DNA of 13,213 nucleotides from Cyanobacteria bacterium P01_D01_bin.156 (GTDB lineage: Bacteria; Cyanobacteriota; Cyanobacteriia; Phormidesmidales; Phormidesmidaceae), in assembly GCA_039024555.1 (NCBI GenBank), contig JBCCQQ010000102.1, positions 1 through 13,213 of the forward strand, in the 5' to 3' direction. This document shows, in pieces, positions 1 to 13,213 of the stretch. Positions within the stretch are counted from its first letter, which is position 1, and every line of letters starts with the position of its first letter. Below the pieces are notes generated by a model. The model was given only the letters and a program-made list of their open reading frames with translations, was not told the origin of the DNA and ran no database searches. A program made the translations under genes and the position numbers.

Positions 1-201
1 CAGCGGCTGGCCTTTATGCGCCAGGGCAAACTCTGGGCCATTGGGGCCGTGGCCAACACCCTTACCCCTGAGGTAATCAATCAAGTATTCGATGTAGAAG
101 TGGCGATTTTGGATACCCCCGTGGGGCTTCAGATTTGTCCTGTAGCTGCGTCTTCACCTATCCCACCTGCTGTTGGATTAACCGAAGAAGCCATAGTTTA
201 G
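1..201 (+). CDS. 3' end of an iron-complex/heme ABC transporter ATP-binding protein (FecE/HmuV family), 5'-truncated by the window
   Basis: Frame is open from base 1: QRLAFMRQGKLWAIGAVANTLTPEVINQVFDVEVAILDTPVGLQICP. This resembles the typical FecE C-terminus (R-I-x-x-M-x-x-G ... G ... LT-x-E-x-I-x-x-VF). It lies directly upstream of a TonB-dependent receptor. Confidence 0.85.
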   Translation, partial: QRLAFMRQGKLWAIGAVANTLTPEVINQVFDVEVAILDTPVGLQICPVAASSPIPPAVGLTEEAIV

Positions 202-2833: not shown

Positions 2834-3253
2834 CTATTGCTCTGTGGCAGGTTTAGGAACGGTTGCTATCCCCAAACTTGCATTCTCAATAGTCCTTAGT
2901 GTATCCATCACGGTAATCACGTTACCGTGATACGTTTGCTCGTCTGCTTTAATGGTAATCAATGCTTTTTGATCCGGTTCAATCTGCTCGACAATTCGCT
3001 GGCGTAGATTGTCTTCTGTAACAGATAGTTTATCTAGAAAGAGACTACCGTCTGGCTCAATGGTAACGGTAAAATCAGCAGGCTCTTGAGGCTTGGATGT
3101 GTCGGTTTTGGGTAAGTTGACCGGTAGTCCTTCCGTGCGAGTTAGGAAAAGGGTTGAAACGATGAAAAATGCAAGAATTGCAAAAATCACATCGATCATC
3201 GGCAAAATATTAATCTCAAACTCGTCGCCATGATCGTTATCTAGGATGCGCAT
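2834..3253 (-). CDS. exbD: Biopolymer transport protein ExbD
   Basis: EINILPMIDVIFAILAFFIV transmembrane motif with the conserved Asp, VNLP, and IKAD...HGNVITVMD. Overlaps the end of exbB. Confidence 0.95.
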   Translation of the reverse strand: MRILDNDHGDEFEINILPMIDVIFAILAFFIVSTLFLTRTEGLPVNLPKTDTSKPQEPADFTVTIEPDGSLFLDKLSVTEDNLRQRIVEQIEPDQKALITIKADEQTYHGNVITVMDTLRTIENASLGIATVPKPATEQ

Positions 3254-3890
3254 ACTCGGGAGTTCCTACCTTATGGCTGTAGTGATTTTCGTACAGTAGT
3301 TCGAGCTGACCACCGTTTTCTTGTAAAAGAGCAATCTGCCGCTTGTAGAGACCGCGAAACAGATTAGCAAATAGCAAAGTAAAAATTGCGACAACCATGC
3401 CTGCTGCGGTTGAAACTAACGCCTCACTGATACCACCAGTGACGGCTTCAGCATTGGAGCCAATGCCACCAATTTCAATTGCATCAAATGAATGAATGAG
3501 TCCCAAAATAGTCCCAAGCAGCCCCAGCAGTGGTGAAACTGTAATTATTGTCTGAAAGACAGTATTGAATCGCTTGAGGATTGGTAACTCCGCTTGAGTA
3601 GCGCTTTCTAGAGCTAAACGAAATTGGCTAGGAGACGCATTTTCAATCTCTAGCGCTTCAAGAAAAATACGAGATATGGGTAAGTGAATACTTTGTCTGA
3701 GGATGGCAAACACATCCATCGGTGTGTGACGGTAGGTTGCCAAAATCTTTTTGACGACCTGGCGCTGACGGCGATTGATGCGGCTCCAGAATACAACACG
3801 CTCAACGGAGAGTGCGATCGCAATCAGAGAGAACAATGCCAAGGGCCACATGACAATGCCCCCTGCCTGAAAAATTTCCATAAACGACAT
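3237..3890 (-). CDS. exbB: MotA/TolQ/ExbB proton channel protein ExbB
   Basis: GGIVMWPL, ERVVFW, SPLLGLLGTILGLI and GGISEALVSTAAG motifs. Confidence 0.95.
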   Translation of the reverse strand: MSFMEIFQAGGIVMWPLALFSLIAIALSVERVVFWSRINRRQRQVVKKILATYRHTPMDVFAILRQSIHLPISRIFLEALEIENASPSQFRLALESATQAELPILKRFNTVFQTIITVSPLLGLLGTILGLIHSFDAIEIGGIGSNAEAVTGGISEALVSTAAGMVVAIFTLLFANLFRGLYKRQIALLQENGGQLELLYENHYSHKVGTPEYAHPR

Positions 3891-4077
3891 AGCAGTAGCT
3901 CCTTCAAGGCTTAACCCGACAACCTAGAACAACTGTGTATGTTCTGACAATGACATCCTGAAGTGGCCATAGGTGATGTCAGAGAAGCAGCACCTCATCC
4001 AACTAGTGGCAGTATGTCCTAGCTCAAATCATACAAGGGATCAGCGGCTCATGTTTTAATAATTATCCATTTATTAA

Positions 4078-4092
4078 TGATATTGAATGTCA
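4078..4092. promoter_or_regulatory. Putative Fur box in the exbB/tonB divergent promoter region
   Basis: TGATATTGAATGTCA matches the 7-1-7 form TGATAATnATTATCA at 11 of 14 positions. It sits in an AT-rich intergenic region between iron-uptake genes. A weaker Fur-like tract lies near 4205-4238. Confidence 0.5.
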
Positions 4093-4301
4093 TATATGAA
4101 TCTAATTTAGAACGTATATAAAAGATAATGCACCGCTTAAAACAGCTGAACTACCTTACTAAAGGTTCAAAATTCTAGATTCTAAATGCTTTGAATGCAA
4201 TATTAGTTAGTCAATTCTTATTTAAATTTTTTCTCAATAGATATAGACTAGTGCATGTACCCCGTCGCCGCTATTACCAATAGCCCACAAATTGCTTTTG
4301 T

Positions 4302-5849
4302 ATGGCGCTTTCCCAGACATGCATTGAACAGCACAGCAAGGAAGACTCGATCTCTCGCAGATGGGCTAAGTGTGGGCTGCTCTGTGCTGCCGGTTTACAT
4401 GCTGGATTGATTTCTTTGTTAGCCCTAAGCCCAACTCCCGAGAAGCAAGAGCGTATTGAGTTAATCGTTATGGCCTCTAGTCAGACAAGTGCTCTGGCAG
4501 AACCCCAGCTATTGGAGCAAGCGGAAGAACCGACACCCGTACCTGAGCAGTGGCCACCTCAAAGTCAACAACTGGAAGAGCCGCAAAATAATCCACCCCA
4601 ACTGTTGAAAGAATCGGAAGACCCCGATTCTAAAGAAGAGTCAAAAGAGCCAGAAGCAGCTGAAGACTCGAAAGAACTAGATGCGGCTGAGGAGCTTCAA
4701 GAGCCGGAGGTTACGGAGAATTCAAAAACATCAGAAGTGGCTGAAGAACCTGAAGCATCCGATGTTTCAGAAGACATTTCAGAAGAACCGGAAGACTTCA
4801 CATCTGAAGCTGTGGAAACGGCTGAAAATCTCCCAGCAGCAGCACCAGTCTCAAATAGCGCACCTCCTATTCGGGTGGCCACCAACTCTGCCCCTAGTCT
4901 GGCCATTCCGCTAAATATTGGTCCAAGGGCAAGCGTCCCAGGTACGAATGAGACCAGTGACTCTAGCTCAGAAGACACCGATTCCAAAAACGCTAACCCA
5001 GGGGACAATTCTCAAAATCAGCCAGAAGCACGCCCACAAGAGCCCACAAGAGCTAACTCACGCCGTAGTCAATTTGGCTGTCGTAACTGCATTAGACCCG
5101 ATTACCCTGAAGCGGCTTTAGATGAAGCAGCGGAAGGAGAACCTCAAATTGAGTTTGAGGTCGATCAAGACGGTAATGTTATTAGTGCCCGTCTGGCTCA
5201 GTCCAGCGGCAGCCCAGCATTGGACCAAGCTGCATTAGACGCTATTAGACAGTCCACCTTTACCGCAGGGGGGCAGGGCCGTTCTCGAACCATCGCTGTG
5301 GATTTTTCCATTGAGGGCACCCAACGAAATCGGACGGCGCGGCAACGGGGTGAACGACCCACCATCGAAGAAACCGCAACGGCAGAACCAGCATCTGCTA
5401 ACAATGGAACCGCAGCCACCGCAACCCCTGCACCAGTGGAAAATACAACCACAGTTCCTGCAGCTAAGCCTGCCCCAGATACTGATGGCACAGACATTGA
5501 ACAACAACCTGAAACACCAACAACAGCTGAGAATCTTAGTGAGAGCAGCGAGGACGATGAAATTGCCGATACGCAAGAGCAAACACCATCTTCCGCATCG
5601 CCAGAACCAGTGACGGATACTCCTCATCCTGAACCATTAGAGACACCGCCTTCTCCAAATTCGCAGGTTTCAGCAGAGCCCCAGCCAAGTACCCCAGCGG
5701 TTCCAGCTTCCCAGACGGAGATACCTCCAATTCCTCAGACAGTTACAACACCCGAGCCAGCTACAGTACAGGAATCACCCGTACAAGTAGCTCCACAGCC
5801 TGTTCTCGATAATCTTTCCCCTGTTGACGAATCTGTTCCCGGAAGCTAG
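4302..5849 (+). CDS. tonB: Energy transducer TonB with a long C-terminal Pro/Glu/Thr-rich extension
   Basis: N-terminal TM helix with the conserved His (AAGLHAGLI), an acidic/Pro-rich spacer, and a TonB_C domain (PDYPEAA...GEPQIEFEVDQDGNVISARLAQSSGSPALDQAALDAIRQSTF). Divergent from exbBD. Confidence 0.9.
   Translation: MALSQTCIEQHSKEDSISRRWAKCGLLCAAGLHAGLISLLALSPTPEKQERIELIVMASSQTSALAEPQLLEQAEEPTPVPEQWPPQSQQLEEPQNNPPQLLKESEDPDSKEESKEPEAAEDSKELDAAEELQEPEVTENSKTSEVAEEPEASDVSEDISEEPEDFTSEAVETAENLPAAAPVSNSAPPIRVATNSAPSLAIPLNIGPRASVPGTNETSDSSSEDTDSKNANPGDNSQNQPEARPQEPTRANSRRSQFGCRNCIRPDYPEAALDEAAEGEPQIEFEVDQDGNVISARLAQSSGSPALDQAALDAIRQSTFTAGGQGRSRTIAVDFSIEGTQRNRTARQRGERPTIEETATAEPASANNGTAATATPAPVENTTTVPAAKPAPDTDGTDIEQQPETPTTAENLSESSEDDEIADTQEQTPSSASPEPVTDTPHPEPLETPPSPNSQVSAEPQPSTPAVPASQTEIPPIPQTVTTPEPATVQESPVQVAPQPVLDNLSPVDESVPGS
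4635..4769 (+). repeat. Degenerate 27-bp (9-aa) in-frame tandem repeat in the tonB spacer, about 5 copies
   Basis: EESKEPEAA / EDSKELDAA / EELQEPEVT / ENSKTSEVA / EEPEASDVS. The first two DNA units are gaagagtcaaaagagccagaagcagct and gaagactcgaaagaactagatgcggct. Confidence 0.6.
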
Positions 5850-6936: not shown

Positions 6937-7026
6937 GCGAACAATTTATAAAAATAACGAGCGAGCTGCTCACTGCGTTGGTGCAGTTCCTGATTATGCA
7001 GTTGTCACTCAGTTTCGGAAACAGTT

Positions 7027-7890
7027 CTAATTCTTCCATAGCGCATTTGCCAATGCCCCAGAGATGATTAATGTACCGCCTATTAACGTCCACAGAGTAG
7101 GCACTTCACTAAAAAATACAACGCCAAGGATGGCGGAAAAAATAACCTGTATGTAGGAATACGATGTCACTTTACCAGCCTTTTCTGCTGCCATCGCTTT
7201 AGTGAGTCCAACTTGCCCTATCTGGGTAAACACACCAACCAATAGCAATAACAGAAGTTCGTTAACGTCTGGAAAAACAAAGTTATTGCCAAGTAAAAGC
7301 AGTGAAATGGGAAGTGCAATAAGAGGAAAATAAAAAATAATAACGGAGCTGTCTTCTGTCTGACTTAAACGTCGCACGATCACATAGGCCACTGCGCTGC
7401 CAAATGCACCTATCAACGCTGCCATTACACTCAGTGGCGGCAGTCCCAACATTTCGCCACTGGTTCCAGGACGTACCATAACTATCAGGCCAACAAAACT
7501 TAGGATGATACAGAGCACTGTTGAGCGCTTTACTGACTCACCTAGAAAAAACAAGGCCAGAATAGCGGTAAAGGCAGGATGCGTATATTGGAACACTGTT
7601 GCATCCGCTAGTGGAAGTGTGGAAACTGCATAGTAAATGCAGACTAACGCCAATGTCCCTACAGTACCCCTGGCAACTAACAGGAGATGATTATGTCCCC
7701 ATACAGAGAGACCCTTACGCTTTATGTCTAAATAGCTAAGCAACAAAGACACTGATGCCCGTGCAGCAATAATCTCTAATACGGGAATGCCATAACCTGC
7801 CACAGTTTTTACACAGGTCGACATCATTGCAAAACCTAATGCTGACAGCAAGATATAACGGATGGCAACAGGAATTGTGCTTAGAGTCAT
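7027..7890 (-). CDS. DMT/EamA family transporter, probable last cassette gene
   Basis: About 10 hydrophobic segments in two EamA repeats (YYAVSTLPLADATVFQYTHPAFTAILALFFLGE; YIQVIFSAILGVVFFSEVPT). Follows the attC-like site at 8103 in array orientation. Confidence 0.92.
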   Translation of the reverse strand: MTLSTIPVAIRYILLSALGFAMMSTCVKTVAGYGIPVLEIIAARASVSLLLSYLDIKRKGLSVWGHNHLLLVARGTVGTLALVCIYYAVSTLPLADATVFQYTHPAFTAILALFFLGESVKRSTVLCIILSFVGLIVMVRPGTSGEMLGLPPLSVMAALIGAFGSAVAYVIVRRLSQTEDSSVIIFYFPLIALPISLLLLGNNFVFPDVNELLLLLLVGVFTQIGQVGLTKAMAAEKAGKVTSYSYIQVIFSAILGVVFFSEVPTLWTLIGGTLIISGALANALWKN

Positions 7891-8102
7891 TAATCAACGG
7901 TCTTAAGAAAAAGGAAGTTGCATCTTAGCAGATATTCCAATTACTCTCGCCTAAAGTTGGCAATGTCGCCCATGGTTTTTCTTGGCAATATAGACGACTT
8001 AGACTTGCAACCGTTACTACAACAGTCTAAAAAAACAAATGCTTGTCTACATAGATACAGGCGATTTCATTAGTAGCTAGTGACGTCGCACTACTGTTTG
8101 CC

Positions 8103-8188
8103 GCGTAACGTTTCTGGTTAGCGTTTACCAAGACTTTTATACCCAACTTAAGTAGTTTCAATCAATCCGCTGCACCAGAGTATTCTGG
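8103..8188 (-). other. Degenerate attC site
   Basis: Minus strand: R'' CCAGAAT (AAC lost), 5 bp, L'' GGTGCAGC ... L' GCTAACC, 6 bp, R' GTTACGC. On the plus strand TCTGGTTAGCG pairs imperfectly with CGCTGCACCAGA, which carries one extra base. Length 86 bp, about 65 bp after the stop at 8254. Confidence 0.7.
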
Positions 8189-8253
8189 TGTGTGAAATTC
8201 TGGCTAAAAATTAATATAGAAGTTACATCAGTCACATCTCCAGCAACTGCAGT

Positions 8254-9254
8254 TCAAACTTTGAGTCGTGCTAGTGCGAATTTTCCCCGTTCCATCACTG
8301 ATGGATAGGAATCCTGCGACAGTAATTTAGCAATTGGTAACGCATCATCCTTTCCAATAACGTCTAGCTTAGCAATGAGCATATTACCGGCCACTCTTCG
8401 AACTGACGGAGAATTATCTCTAGTTGCTTCTTTGAGGATTTCTAAGAACGATCGATCTAACGTTATTGCCCTCTCACCAAGACCTGGCTCATGACGCCCT
8501 TCGCACCAACGAATATTTATCCATACCCATTTTCGATCCTCGAACCATACTATACGCTCTTCCAATTGACTAAGATATGCCTTAGCGCGAACCGCTGGTT
8601 GAACAGCTTCCTTGGAGATAGTTGGTAAAAATTTATCAAGCACGGGCTTTCGGCCTGCTTGTCCAAGAATTGAAGCCGCCGGACCCGCTGTCACATTAAT
8701 AAGTTTCGATGCCAGTCGTGACGGTACACCATCAATAGAAAGAAGACTTATCAGTACTTCTAGATCCTCGTTCTGTAAGCGTCCCCAAGTATGTAAGTGT
8801 GGCAAAATTGCCCAGAGTGTCTCTAGTATGTACTCAGGTTTAGTGTTAGCTGCTATATCTGCGGGACATGTTCACGAGCTGCGGCTCGCACCTGAGGAAC
8901 CCAATCGTTTAACCGTCGGAGAACCATAGCAAAAAGAAACCCATTCGGCGCACCTTCATGTAAAGAACGCAATGCCTTTTCACGTAGATACCCGTTGCCA
9001 TGACAATGATCTAACCAAGGAATTAGCAAACGATGTTCACGAAGCCTAAACAACTTAGATCTTGAGTGTGGTTCTAAATAAATTTCATAACGAAAGGTTC
9101 TTTCCCAATCCTCTAATTTGGTAACAGATAATAACGAGGTTACATTTATATATTCAGATACTGCTGAAGCTAGATCAAGATGTCCATTAGCAGCATGTGC
9201 AAGATTTCGTACTGCACCTAAAACCCTATCCCCGTCATCTTGTTGATGTGTCAT
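8254..9254 (-). pseudogene. Frameshifted cassette gene, HEAT/ARM-repeat-like hypothetical protein (about 332 aa if repaired)
   Basis: ORFs 8853-9254 and 8254-8805 join if 2 nt are removed from TATAT at 8854-8858, giving ...AAREHVPQIAANTKPEYILETLWAILPHLHTWG... HEAT-like motifs occur in both halves (NGYLREKAL, LNDWVPQVRAAA, TRDNSPSVRRVA, LSQDSYPSVMERG). Confidence 0.8.
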
Positions 9255-9342
9255 GCTCAGAGCGTGAGTATAGTGTTCTTTATGACAAATGTAAGAATTC
9301 CCTTAGATGATTCCAGTTCATAGGAAATAGGGTTATTGTGCG

Positions 9343-9427
9343 GCATAACGGGGAGCTGAGCGGCGGTCAGTATTGCTTGATTGCTGCCTGAATTTTCCAA
9401 TCCGTCCGCTCCTGCGTAAGGTTATGC
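9343..9427 (-). other. attC site (intact, 85 bp)
   Basis: Minus strand: R'' GCATAAC, CTTAC, L'' GCAGGAGC, GGACGG ... CCGCC, L' GCTCAGC, TCCCC, R' GTTATGC. R'' and R' are perfectly complementary. The extra bases lie in the L'' arm, including an extrahelical T on the bottom strand. It begins 30 bp after the vapC stop. Confidence 0.9.
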
Positions 9428-9457
9428 AGCATTTTGTCTGAAAATTCAATTACTCAA

Positions 9458-9871
9458 TTACTGGACTGGGATGATATCAAAAGTATCTTGATTACCAATG
9501 CGATAGAACAAAAAATCTGAATCAAGAGTGAGAATTTGCCGAGCACCTGTCTGCTCAGCTGCCAGAACTAATGATGCATCAGCTAAATCCATAGGCCGAT
9601 CCTGATACTTTTCCATCAGCTCAAATAAACGCTTGTAATCCCCTTCCTGAATTTCATAATTCACTAACAATTTGTCTAAAAGTAATTGCCCTAGCTGCTT
9701 TTGCATTTTCCATCCACCTCGATGGAGAGCTAGATACATGGCTTCGGTCAAGCAAGACCAAGTAGTTAGGAGAGGAGAGGCAAGCGTTATAACCGCATTG
9801 CGATAAGCTTTGTGTTGAGGTTGGGTGCGATCGACCAGGCAAAGTAAAACTCCCGCATCACAAAGAATCAA
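9458..9871 (-). CDS. vapC: PIN-domain ribonuclease toxin (VapC family)
   Basis: ILCDAG, TWSCLTEAMYL, YQDRPMDLADASLV and ILTLDSDF carry the acidic PIN residues. The TTG start overlaps the upstream TGA stop (TTGA), implying translational coupling. Confidence 0.92.
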   Translation of the reverse strand: MILCDAGVLLCLVDRTQPQHKAYRNAVITLASPLLTTWSCLTEAMYLALHRGGWKMQKQLGQLLLDKLLVNYEIQEGDYKRLFELMEKYQDRPMDLADASLVLAAEQTGARQILTLDSDFLFYRIGNQDTFDIIPVQ

Positions 9872-10128
9872 AGCTCTAGCCCCTGTTTACGATATTTAGA
9901 TAGTAGATGCTCCCGATAGTCATTAGGTGGTTCGGTAGTTTTACTTTGTAGATGATCAACTGCTGTGAACCATTGTGTCCATGTTTCAGTTACAGCAGCT
10001 TGATAACCGCCTGATTTGGCCCATGGCTGGCGTTTATAAGTTAAAAAATCGATAAAATCATTAACTTGCTGCAAGAGTGCATCTGGCAGGTGCTGCAGCT
10101 TGGCGATAGCAATTTCGCGAATCGTCAT
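9868..10128 (-). CDS. Putative antitoxin with a DUF2281-like N-terminus
   Basis: MTIREIAIAKLQHLPDALLQQVNDFIDFL resembles DUF2281 (LP-x4-EV-x-DF-x2-FL). It is 86 aa and immediately upstream of the PIN toxin. ATG 10128 is preferred over TTG 10155. Confidence 0.8.
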   Translation of the reverse strand: MTIREIAIAKLQHLPDALLQQVNDFIDFLTYKRQPWAKSGGYQAAVTETWTQWFTAVDHLQSKTTEPPNDYREHLLSKYRKQGLEL

Positions 10129-10165
10129 AATCCAAAAACTAAGGAATTTTAACAAGTATCTTCCA

Positions 10166-10202
10166 ATTATATTTCAAGTAATGAAAGGTTACCCATTACT
10201 TG
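10166..10202 (-). promoter_or_regulatory. Toxin-antitoxin promoter: -10 box plus inverted-repeat operator
   Basis: Perfect TATAAT on the minus strand (10171-10166), 37 bp upstream of ATG 10128. Just upstream is a perfect 9-bp inverted repeat, CAAGTAATG (10175-10183)-N10-CATTACTTG (10194-10202). Confidence 0.6.
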
Positions 10203-10228
10203 GGTTTGGTCAATTTTTTGAGTTAGCG

Positions 10229-10299
10229 GCACGATATATTCGTTACAATGCCATTTGCAAATATGCTCTGTGCTCAATGTATTAATTGTTTTGTTGTGT
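10229..10299 (-). other. Possible vestigial attC between cassette 1 and the TA module
   Basis: Minus strand: ACACAAC overlaps the TGA stop (R''-like) ... TTGTAAC, 6 bp, ATCGTGCCGC. The last is three transitions away from the GTTATGCCGC seen at the other junctions. The inner arms pair poorly. Confidence 0.35.
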
Positions 10300-10757
10300 C
10301 AAATGCCAAGGTGCAACAAAAAGTAGTTGTCATTAGACTCTTCAACTTGCTTGGCATACTTGCCAATCGTTTGGAGTTTATCAACAAGTTCATCACGTTG
10401 AAGAATAATCTTTTCGTAATTTCCGGTCTCTGATTTACCTTCAATCTCGGTCCAAGCTCCGGTGAGTGTAAGAGATGGGGTCCCGAGCAAAAACAGATTG
10501 GTCCATGCACTAAAGATTGCCGAGGCTTGTGCGGATCCTTTCATACGAATTACGGTTGGCCCATATAAACAAAGGCCAAAACCTTCTTGCTTTTTTGCAG
10601 GGTTATACGTTGGAATCCAGGTTAGCGAGTCACCTATGTATCGAACGACATCATCATGGATCTGCATAGCACGCGGATCATTGATTAGGCTATTGTAATC
10701 CGACTCAGAGTAGTCTTGGCGTGAAAGAAGTAAGAAGTCGTGGTTAAGACCAGCCAT
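10299..10757 (-). CDS. Hypothetical protein, first integron cassette (152 aa)
   Basis: Intact ORF starting 22 bp after the attI crossover (G|TTATGCCGCTACTTGAAGAACA ATG), the promoterless layout typical of cassettes. No catalytic motif recognised. Confidence 0.85.
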   Translation of the reverse strand: MAGLNHDFLLLSRQDYSESDYNSLINDPRAMQIHDDVVRYIGDSLTWIPTYNPAKKQEGFGLCLYGPTVIRMKGSAQASAIFSAWTNLFLLGTPSLTLTGAWTEIEGKSETGNYEKIILQRDELVDKLQTIGKYAKQVEESNDNYFLLHLGI

Positions 10758-10773
10758 TGTTCTTCAAGTAGCG

Positions 10774-10834
10774 GCATAACTATGCGTTATCCAGACAAAG
10801 TCTGGATAAATACCTTCAGTCGGAGTTATCCAGA
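10774..10834 (-). other. attI site with accessory integrase-binding-like repeats
   Basis: Minus strand: L box GGATAAC, 5-bp spacer GCATA, R box GTTATGC (10792-10774). This has the same 7-5-7 geometry as attI1. TTATCCAGA recurs at 10787, inverted at 10801 and direct at 10826. Confidence 0.8.
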
Positions 10835-10850
10835 AAGCTTTAACGTATCT

Positions 10851-10874
10851 TTAATAGTTCACTTGAACTATTAA
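10851..10874. promoter_or_regulatory. 24-bp palindrome upstream of intI, LexA-box-like operator
   Basis: TTAATAGTTCA-CT-TGAACTATTAA has perfect 11-bp arms. The core AGTTC-ACTT-GAACT differs from the cyanobacterial LexA consensus AGTAC-N4-GTACT by one base per half. Confidence 0.5.
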
Positions 10875-10922
10875 GTAATAATTGCTACATAGGAGTTTCG
10901 ATATTTTTACGTATCAATTGAT

Positions 10923-11889
10923 ATGTCATCTAAGCCAAGAACTTTACTGGAAGCCGTTCGTGATGCCATTCGCATAAAACATTACTCATATAGAACCGAA
11001 AAAAGTTACATCAATTGGATTAAGCGATACATTCAATTTCATAACTGGCAGCATCCTAGAAATATGGGAGGTCCAGAAATTGAAGCGTTTTTAACCCATT
11101 TAGCTGTTACCAAAAAGGTTGCTGCTTCTACCCAAAATCAAGCACTCTGCGCCTTACTGTTTCTGTACCGTACCGTTCTGCAGTTGGACTTAGACCTGAA
11201 TATAGATGCGGTTAGGGCTAAAACGTCCCCAACGTCTTCCTACGGTCCTATCAAAAGAGGAAGTAAGGGCCGTTATTCAGCAACTTTCGGGTGTCTATCG
11301 TCTGGTAATACAGCTTTTATACGGCTGTGGCTTTAGGTAGATTGAATGTCTACGACTCAGGCTCAAAGACATCCAATTTGCTCAACATCAAATAGTTGTT
11401 CGCGATACTAAAGGCATGAAAGATCGAGTCACTATGCTCCCTAATCTTTTAGTCATACCTCTAAAAGAACATTTGCAACATGTTAACCGGCTACACAAAC
11501 AAGATTTAGAGAGAGGGCAAGGGGCTGTTGATTTACCATTTGCCTTGACTAAGAAGTATCCCAATGCCTGTCGAGAATGGGGATGGCAATATGTGTTTCC
11601 CTCGGAAAGATTTTCTAAAAATCCTCGAACCAGTCAGTGGCAGCGCTATCATCTGCATGAAACAGGTTTACAAAAAGCTGTTAAACAGGCAGTACGCCAA
11701 GCGGGCATCCATCAAAAAGTTAGTTGTCATACGTTTCGCCATAGCTTTGCGACTCACTTGTTACAAAATGGCTATGATATTCGCACTATTCAAGAGTTGT
11801 TGGGCCATAAAGATGTTAAAACTACGATGATTTACACTCATGTACTAAATCGTGGTGGGCATGGAGTACGCAGCCCACTGGATTGTTAA
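10923..11889 (+). pseudogene. intI: Integron integrase IntI, inactivated (about 321 aa if repaired)
   Basis: N-terminal HYSYRTEKSYINWIKRYI...VAASTQNQALCALLFLY, the IntI-specific insertion ([27 protein letters not shown]), [19 protein letters not shown] and [16 protein letters not shown]. An extra A in AAAA (11220-11223) shifts the frame, and there is an in-frame TAG at 11338-11340. Confidence 0.95.
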
Positions 11890-12649: not shown

Positions 12650-12875
12650 AAAGCTTATTGGAAAAAATATTTCAAGACAGTCTTTTCCAAAAACTGGCTG
12701 GTTAATTGGTTAGCGAAGGAGAGGAGTACTGTACAAACTTAGCGACACCGAACCCAATGACTGGCAATATCACTACCCACCGGACAACCCAATGAAGTAA
12801 TGGCAATTTTGAACAAAAAGATTAGAGTCGAATAGGAATGAAGAGCTGTGCATCTGCCAAACAAGGGGGGTAGCC

Positions 12876-13213
12876 ATGGTCTTAGAAACACAGAATCTGC
12901 AGGGCGGCTACGGCGAGAAAACCATTGTCGAACAAGTTACCCTGGCCGTAGGAGAAGGAGAATGGCTGAGTATTTTGGGGGCCAATGGTTCTGGTAAGTC
13001 CACTCTGCTACGGCTGATGGGGCGTATTTTAGCCCCTCAGCAAGGTGTTGTTTCTTTGTCAGGAAAAGATATCCAGCAGCTATCGCCCACAGCTGTGGCC
13101 CGCAAGCTCGCGTTACTGCCCCAGCAACAGGTATTGCCAGCAGGTCTGAGTGTTTATCAGCTGGTTAGTTTGGGGCGGTCTCCTCACCAGCCATGGTGGC
13201 AGTGGGACCTGAC
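12876..13213 (+). CDS. Iron-complex/heme ABC transporter ATP-binding protein (FecE family), 3'-truncated by the window; absent from the ORF track
   Basis: ATG 12876 follows AAGGGGGG. MVLETQNLQGGYGEKTIVEQVTL...ILGANGSGKSTLLR (Walker A)...LALLPQQ (Q-loop)...LVSLGRSPHQPWWQWDL, open to the window end. Confidence 0.92.
   Translation, partial: MVLETQNLQGGYGEKTIVEQVTLAVGEGEWLSILGANGSGKSTLLRLMGRILAPQQGVVSLSGKDIQQLSPTAVARKLALLPQQQVLPAGLSVYQLVSLGRSPHQPWWQWDL

Follow-up and report, generated by a model that had tools for sequence, protein, structure and literature searches.

A small, probably frozen chromosomal integron in a cyanobacterial genome, with the truncated form of a phased attI box array

Integrons acquire genes when the integrase IntI recombines a double-stranded attI site with the folded bottom strand of an attC site, the newest cassette coming to lie next to attI (PMC8946536, PMC2727003). 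A chromosomal integron is called sedentary when its locus is fixed across a species or when it holds more than 19 attCs (PMC4889954). Cyanobacterial intI genes have been recorded with a pseudogene share of about one third (PMC2426708), a share of 43% predicted inactive is given in PMC3108266, cyanobacterial integrons are recorded in PMC4889954, PMC9668308 and PMC3607928, and an attC model exists for cyanobacteria (PMC8352920, PMC9176274); PMC12901181 was also among the literature compared. Here we analyzed contig JBCCQQ010000102.1 of Cyanobacteria bacterium P01_D01_bin.156 (C102; the whole contig of 13,213 bp is called the window below), part of a 6.6-Mb draft genome in 149 contigs. An initial annotation, made from the sequence alone, had proposed that it carries a complete integron. 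We find that the window holds a small non-sedentary chromosomal integron, which very probably was working until fairly recently and is now frozen.

The locus resembles the published chromosomal integrons of cyanobacteria (PMC2426708, PMC4889954, with the attC model of PMC8352920) in its divergent intI, its attI simple site, its few cassettes, an attC with two unpaired bases in the L'' arm and attCs scattered through the genome. It differs from them by a broken integrase and a shortened attI; in the excerpts of the surveys compared, no description of cyanobacterial attI structure was found. With pseudo-integrons (PMC2426708, PMC3108266; intI2 of class 2) it shares frameshift and nonsense lesions, a small frozen array and the presence in the genome of a second intI that is intact and belongs to another clade, whereas intI2 carries a single stop against two lesions here and the window is without resistance cassettes. 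Nor is such an integron rare: the cut-off is passed by an IntI in 23 of the 41 relatives, 46 of the 121 family genomes and 12 of the 121 genomes taken across the phylum (each count including this genome), and such integrons are already published (PMC2426708, PMC4889954, PMC8352920). Broken genes are frequent too, with in-frame stops in 10 of 41 near-full-length family matches and 22 additional matches that are partial. Cyanobacterial integrons and intI pseudogenes are thus both on record, and the integron of the window is neither intact nor new.

The integrase gene, of about 321 codons, lies at 10923-11889 on the + strand and is a pseudogene, as judged from the integron integrase model TIGR02249, from its lesions relative to the paralog on contig C92, and from an alignment and a tree. 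Its two pieces score 112.9 bits (10923-11219) and 283.9 bits (11341-11886) with TIGR02249, whose cut-off is 265, and the XerC and XerD models remain below 100 bits on them, which confirmed the proposed IntI type. All six residues of the catalytic R-K-H-R-H-Y set are kept in the alignment with IntI1, IntI3, XerC and XerD, PF00589 is matched, and the IntI-specific insertion (the additional domain around patch III), common to IntI1 and IntI3 and not in XerC/XerD, is kept as well. For alignment and tree the protein was repaired by placing an X at both breaks. Results showed that it falls in a cyanobacterial clade of five rows (100/100), nested in a cyanobacterial clade of 17 rows (96/93), so that it groups with cyanobacterial IntIs and not with XerC/D; among the 30 rows of this tree the C43 row is a wrong long-branch open reading frame (ORF) and one phage-type row is duplicated, which leaves the placement unaffected. 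Identity is 87-92% to the rows of its own clade, 48-49% to IntI1/IntI3 and 25-30% to XerC/XerD of E. coli; the nearest named protein is the integron integrase of Kovacikia minuta plasmid pB, 68% identical.

Compared with the C92 paralog (88.9% DNA identity), the gene has one extra base in the A-run 11220-11223, which shifts the frame, and, in place of the paralog's CAG, a TAG stop in frame at 11338-11340. The intact reading frame expected of a functional integron is absent, and presumably no full-length IntI is produced from the locus. The ratio of nonsynonymous to synonymous substitution rates (dN/dS) against three intact orthologs is 0.095, 0.069 and 0.072; it is 0.077 between two of the intact orthologs themselves, and this likeness indicates that the inactivation is recent. 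We considered whether the integron might be complete and fully active, the breaks being sequence errors or read through. The kept catalytic residues and the low dN/dS would agree with this, as would the position of the extra base within a short A-run, but the two lesions are independent, lie 120 bp apart, and both fall at positions that are open in four orthologs/paralogs. Moreover, a contig of the separate X1 assembly spans 11093-11604 with zero differences and so repeats both of them; X1 is probably the source sample of the genome, so this excludes a slip of one assembly without being an independent confirmation. The extra base is absent from other contigs of X1 and X2, and a third and a fourth lesion lie nearby, namely a frameshift in a HEAT-repeat gene and a decayed attC (see below). 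A fully active integron is hence very improbable.

The attI simple site of the 7-5-7 type, already noticed in the initial annotation, lies at 10774-10792 on the - strand (L box 10786-10792, 5-bp spacer, R box 10774-10780); the pattern has this single match in the window and 22 in the 6.6-Mb genome. The crossover falls between 10780 (G) and 10779 (T). It is fixed there by related attI copies, since those of three relatives with an integrase of the same clade and an orphan copy on contig C21 share the window sequence only from AAC 10778-10780 towards intI. An X2 contig of 1439 nt matches 9346-10780, with 105 differences, and stops at that point; an X5 contig ends at 10780 too. The attI1 site of class 1 (about 65 bp, made up of a simple site and the direct repeats DR1 and DR2; PMC4792948, PMC3146285) shares the 7-5-7 site and the G/TT crossover.

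A motif search for this attI family found it in 16 of 173 family genomes and in 5 metagenome contigs, and we examined 23 distinct loci, including the window, fetched as a subset of the listed places, with three identical metagenome records counted once. Left of the crossover the sequence differs among all 23 loci except one pair. As the initial annotation had led one to expect, gene content beside this attI family varies between copies, and by sequence comparison this is cassette turnover at the attI family, seen from other loci and genomes and not from strains at the window locus. In 18 of the 23 loci intI is missing from its usual position, the homology stopping at varied points. On contig C21, positions 42886-43049 (L024) hold an attI of this family that is full-length but has no intI; genes and two attCs come after it. 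Orphan attI sites occur several times per genome in the genus (L190-L215). We rejected the idea that the orphan attI is a mobile unit with a fixed end, because the varying ends of homology fit loss of intI better. We also observed that the same first-cassette end (L053:4330-4465, L207, L065) adjoins two attI copies of G021 and an attI of another IntI clade in G034, a genome of a different family. A promoter scan for Pc gave 8 promoter-like sites against 12.2 expected by chance, none of them upstream of attI on the cassette strand. Between attI and the start of intI, the alignment shows a palindrome at 10853-10872 that is kept in the three closest relatives and may be an operator.

The intact 85-bp attC that had been proposed was confirmed at 9343-9427 on the - strand. 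Lying opposite to intI, it shows the R''-L''...L'-R' arrangement, with extrahelical bases and a spacer that is unpaired, and its 8-base L'' arm is on the - strand like the cassette genes. The first unpaired base is not the usual bottom-strand G, a kind of change reported to have a small effect on integration (PMC2727003), and the z-score of the minimum free energy is modest (-2.0 to -2.3). Three rounds of nhmmer seeded with this site gathered a family of 82-88 bp sites, and from ten of them, the window site being excluded, we built a covariance model, in whose training set 83.9% of cells pair against 25-47% in slid controls. The window site passes this model with 84.8 bits on the - strand and 14.4 on the + strand. 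At E < 0.001 the model matches in 9 of 15 intI-flanking loci of relatives (two of the nine being training sequences), always opposite intI, and in none of 18 control loci; in class 1 and class 3 integrons it also detects the attCs that follow aadA2 (34 bits) and aac(6')-Ib (20.9 bits) and, with weak scores, the ones that follow dfrA12 and blaGES-1. In this genome, where 150 of 1980 first-look candidates were scored, 14 match at E < 0.001; they lie on 10 contigs and include 8 training sites. A strict hand-made attC rule was dropped, as its 7 matches included the window site and one family member while other members were missed. A scan of the window with Rfam gave no match.

Could the locus be no integron at all, only a XerC/D-like or phage integrase remnant beside chance palindromes? 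The folding z-score of only about -2 and the presence of just one clear attC would fit such a view. It is, however, refuted by the TIGR02249 score above the cut-off, the IntI-specific insertion, the tree, the tie between the attC family and intI loci, and breaks of homology that are exact at the crossover, and we hold it to be next to impossible. None of the three outcomes that the initial annotation named as refuting an integron (grouping with XerC/D, failure of 9343-9427 with an attC covariance model, invariant gene content) was obtained.

Degenerate attC sites had been announced in the plural, and one was found, at 8103-8188 on the - strand, with R' intact, three changes in R'', and a score of 9.4 bits (E 1.1). 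Around it contig C16 is identical to the window in 83 of 86 bases left of the R box and in 26 of 79 right of it, and C16 carries its own attC at the same point (25.4 bits). A drop of identity at the R box is the pattern expected from a recombination crossover, so the position supports a decayed attC. The 87-bp segment 8024-8110 is 96.6% shared with C16; the copy there is joined to a TonB-receptor gene that is truncated, and another set of cassettes comes after it. The model found no attC between ORF152 and the antitoxin gene (both described below) and none after the EamA gene. Two candidates at these places were rejected, one at about 6954-7010 after EamA (too short at 48 nt, wrong spacer, z-scores of -0.9 and -0.2, no model match) and one at 10147-10230 in the gap that separates the antitoxin from ORF152; the latter lacks L boxes and gave no model match, and the cassette-length X2 contig holds both genes.

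The array consists of two cassettes with four genes. The initial annotation counted five co-oriented unrelated genes; five do lie on the - strand, but two of them form a toxin-antitoxin pair, the HEAT-repeat gene is broken and the EamA gene lies beyond the last attC. Cassette 1 (9349-10779, - strand, 1431 bp) comprises ORF152, the antitoxin, the toxin and the intact attC, has perfectly complementary R boxes, and has its counterpart in the 1439-nt X2 contig. ORF152 (10299-10757, - strand, 152 aa) is of unknown function, with no match in Pfam, NCBIfam or PADLOC. Its two homologs, 42-43% identical, are in a gammaproteobacterium and a planctomycete, the latter flanked by long direct repeats as seen by eye; in the Atlas it gave unnamed clusters and a weak DUF1877-like fold row below the naming bar.

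The second gene of cassette 1 encodes a DUF2281/VapB-like antitoxin of 86 aa (9868-10128, - strand), matched weakly and below the cut-off by NF050009 and PF10047; its homologs begin at the same ATG and the one at L072 passes the PF10047 cut-off. Its stop overlaps the start of an intact gene for a PIN-domain (VapC-type) toxin (9458-9871, - strand; PF01850, 36.3 bits, above the cut-off); in 4 of 12 related loci an attC comes after the toxin homolog. Upstream of the antitoxin gene, inspection of 10145-10202 by eye showed an inverted repeat of 9 bp (10175-10202) together with a motif like an extended -10, and the region is likely a self-regulated promoter. Another strain in run X1 shares the toxin-antitoxin pair only up to 10187. 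Toxin-antitoxin cassettes are known to stabilise chromosomal integron arrays, as in Vibrio. The pair of the window resembles those of chromosomal integrons in being coupled and placed directly before an attC, and the G003 array has a HigB-type pair; it differs in that the DUF2281-like/PIN pair shares its cassette with an unrelated ORF.

Cassette 2 (8109-9348, - strand, 1240 bp) is bounded by the attC at 9343-9427 and the decayed one at 8103-8188. It holds a HEAT-repeat pseudogene (8254-9254, - strand; HEAT-type matches) with a 2-nt insertion near 8853-8856; in G050 the gene is a single frame of 337 aa (77% identical DNA). No match to PADLOC was found that would point to a defence role of the cassette genes. 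The EamA/DMT transporter gene (7027-7890, - strand; PF00892) lies beyond the last supported attC. Its homologs in G048 and G050 (88-90%) follow a SelO-type gene, the similarity stopping at the start codon. A status of EamA as a third cassette is not supported, the sole sign in its favor being a 9.7-bit site (E 4.8) after the G050 copy.

These results allowed us to propose how the locus came to its present state. Within the R box, at G/TT (10780/10779), IntI would have recombined attI with the folded attC bottom strand of an incoming cassette, so that ORF152 with the toxin-antitoxin pair, adjoining attI, would be the newest cassette and the HEAT cassette behind it the older one. Decay shows in the intI pseudogene, the shortened attI, one of two attCs decayed and one cassette gene broken. 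Cassette 2 has no sound second attC, and movement of cassette 1 would need attI x attC recombination by the cognate integrase, attI sites being generally specific to it (PMC4792948); the array is thus presumably near locked, and the intact toxin-antitoxin pair probably guards cassette 1 against loss. The term "complete integron" remains fitting in the sense of IntegronFinder, with intI plus at least one attC, but not in that intI is broken and attI lacks 80 bp that the three closest intact relatives have. Likewise, the locus was a cassette-capture platform in the past, and the same signs of decay indicate that it no longer works in cis.

The locus is also not sedentary, as it has two attCs and is absent from the corresponding place in other species: at the iron-binding-protein gene, intI, the cassette genes and attC were all not found in 14 of 14 loci of relatives (3 of them short), a comparison across species and not between strains of the window species. 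The same genome carries an intact IntI of another clade on contig C49 (59.6% identical), with its own attI and cassettes, which is its sole intact IntI and whose attI type differs from that of the window. It further holds the 5'-truncated intI paralog on C92, two intI remnants (C89, C124) and the full-length orphan attI on C21. The integron on C49 (1-4400, L022) is the second of the genome and intact, with an attI period of 42 bp, attCs at 2686-2769 and 4277-4360, and cassettes that include an mCpol-domain gene and a Tse2-like ADP-ribosyltransferase gene. On contig C44, 8530-12100 (L026) is an attC cluster without intI, with AAA-ATPase, DUF4435 and DUF4238 genes, possibly a defence set.

With such an integrase in the genome, the platform might still be used in trans, the C49 IntI moving cassettes although the local intI is dead, as proposed for attC-site clusters that are without an integron-integrase (CALINs). 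The intact IntI, the 14 attC-family sites on 10 contigs and the orphan C21 attI with its downstream attCs speak for it, as do the intact simple site and perfectly complementary attC R boxes of the window, and nearly all of the 18 attI-family loci without intI at the usual place have different neighbours. However, the C49 IntI is 59.6% identical and its attI boxes are different, attI sites being generally cognate-specific (PMC4792948); the second attC and the HEAT gene have decayed, which suggests little use; and among the listed X1 joints no alternative junction was seen at the window crossover, contigs showing presence and not absence. We consider continued use in trans improbable, and a frozen integron the best explanation of the locus.

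Several points nonetheless weigh against this explanation. The X1 contig that repeats the lesions probably lacks independence, as said, and the lesion check was made on assembled contigs. The attC training sites were gathered by similarity to the window site, so its score is partly circular, and the decayed attC is not significant by score alone. The C49 integrase or the 5'-truncated C92 copy may act on the window attI. Finally, an intI fragment is found in G011 at 0.6 kb from the oxidoreductase gene that the window also has, which hints at a shared history, and the window locus may predate what the other comparisons indicate.

The sole unusual trait, and the main lead of this analysis, is a phased array of attI boxes, of which the window shows just a truncated form. 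Its remnant occupies 10793-10842 and has one box in direct orientation (10804-10810) and one that is inverted (10825-10831). The window has 142 bp between the crossover and the start codon where G021, G003 and G042 have 222 bp, 80 bp of the array being missing between two 17-bp repeats. The short form recurs in L192 and L203, with L209 intermediate; an assembly collapse is unlikely, as the shared repeat has just 17-20 nt and the same short form is present in those two other records. In cyanobacterial attI regions, boxes follow one another in alternate orientation about 20 bp apart (40-42 bp period). In the intact relatives this alternation extends over 140-220 bp, and the window keeps the first two extra boxes only. 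Some 27 bases beyond the crossover, attI1 (in the sequence of L097) and the window each have a direct box; near +47, the second direct box of attI1 contrasts with an inverted one in the window's attI family.

To measure this periodicity, we took the best 40-base self-match at lags of 36-44 within 330 bp upstream of intI. A self-match of at least 27 was found in 23 of 39 cyanobacterial loci, and of at least 24 in 33 of 39. At 27 there was none among 28 proteobacterial and 16 planctomycete loci (3 of the 16 planctomycete loci reached 24-25), labels that rest on record titles, and none among 5 loci of a single family belonging to another class of the phylum; the window too is below 27. The cut of 27 was picked after a first look at the data, the shuffles preserved only single-base content, kin are not independent, and loci with less than 250 bp upstream or with no protein-start match were left out, which removed 6 of 34 proteobacterial and 7 of 23 planctomycete ones. 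Without any anchor, 105 of 535 pairs of same-orientation core words were 40-42 apart, and pairs in opposite orientation were 20-21 apart in 61 of 214 and 63 of 360 cases; the other phyla showed no spacing peak, though such words are few there. When anchored, L-like boxes stand at +7, +47, +88 and +126-133, and R-like boxes at +26, +66 and +105-111, of which the window array keeps +7, +26 and +46. Most environmental attI sites are reported without accessory repeats (PMC3146285), and no description of a periodic cyanobacterial attI array was found in the literature searched, most subscription papers, supplements and figures lying outside its scope.

We propose, giving the idea an even chance, that cyanobacterial integrons use an extended attI, in which the simple site is followed by 6-10 further IntI-binding boxes, alternating and two helical turns apart (40-42 bp period). 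The period would be kept across IntI clades only 57-70% identical while the box sequence follows the clade, would contract in 40/80-bp steps, and would often outlive intI as an orphan docking site that can be served in trans. The accessory boxes are putative IntI-binding sites. The array would wrap or load several IntI molecules and so increase cassette capture or, alternatively, would let IntI repress its own promoter in a group without the proteobacterial LexA box.

Around the integron, the left half of the window is an iron-uptake locus with a TonB-dependent receptor, exbD, exbB, tonB and a binding protein. At 2834-5849, exbD, exbB and a long acidic tonB lie between the receptor and binding-protein genes, whereas these two are adjacent or nearly so in those relatives' loci that hold both. 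Window positions 1-201 are the end, and 12876-13213 the start, of one iron ABC ATPase gene; contig C84 terminates in the same ATPase start and C16 opens with the same ATPase end. This points to either a tandem duplication or a homologous insertion of the entire 13.5-kb block. On C16 the receptor gene breaks off at base 798, where the 87-bp segment matching 8024-8110 is attached; after it come other cassettes, a 200-bp repeated element and the final 139 bp of the gene for the binding protein. The element (C16:7950-8154) has copies 91-98% identical on many contigs, often at contig ends, and a photosystem II family gene is present on this linked contig; like the integrase of Kovacikia minuta as nearest named protein, it supports a cyanobacterial host. 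A small-ORF remnant at 12730-12840 lies downstream of the oxidoreductase gene here and upstream of it in G011 and G012.

In conclusion, the window locus is one more decayed cyanobacterial integron in a class already recorded, and alone it has little weight. It is useful as a natural example, with a crossover exact to the base, a three-gene cassette that is intact in another sample, and a short attI variant. Moreover, the natural short and long forms of attI make the role of the accessory sites directly testable. The attI sites of most integrons are described as unknown and not searchable (PMC4889954); if the proposal of an extended attI is true, the 40-42 bp periodic array would be a search signature for cyanobacterial attI sites, orphans included.

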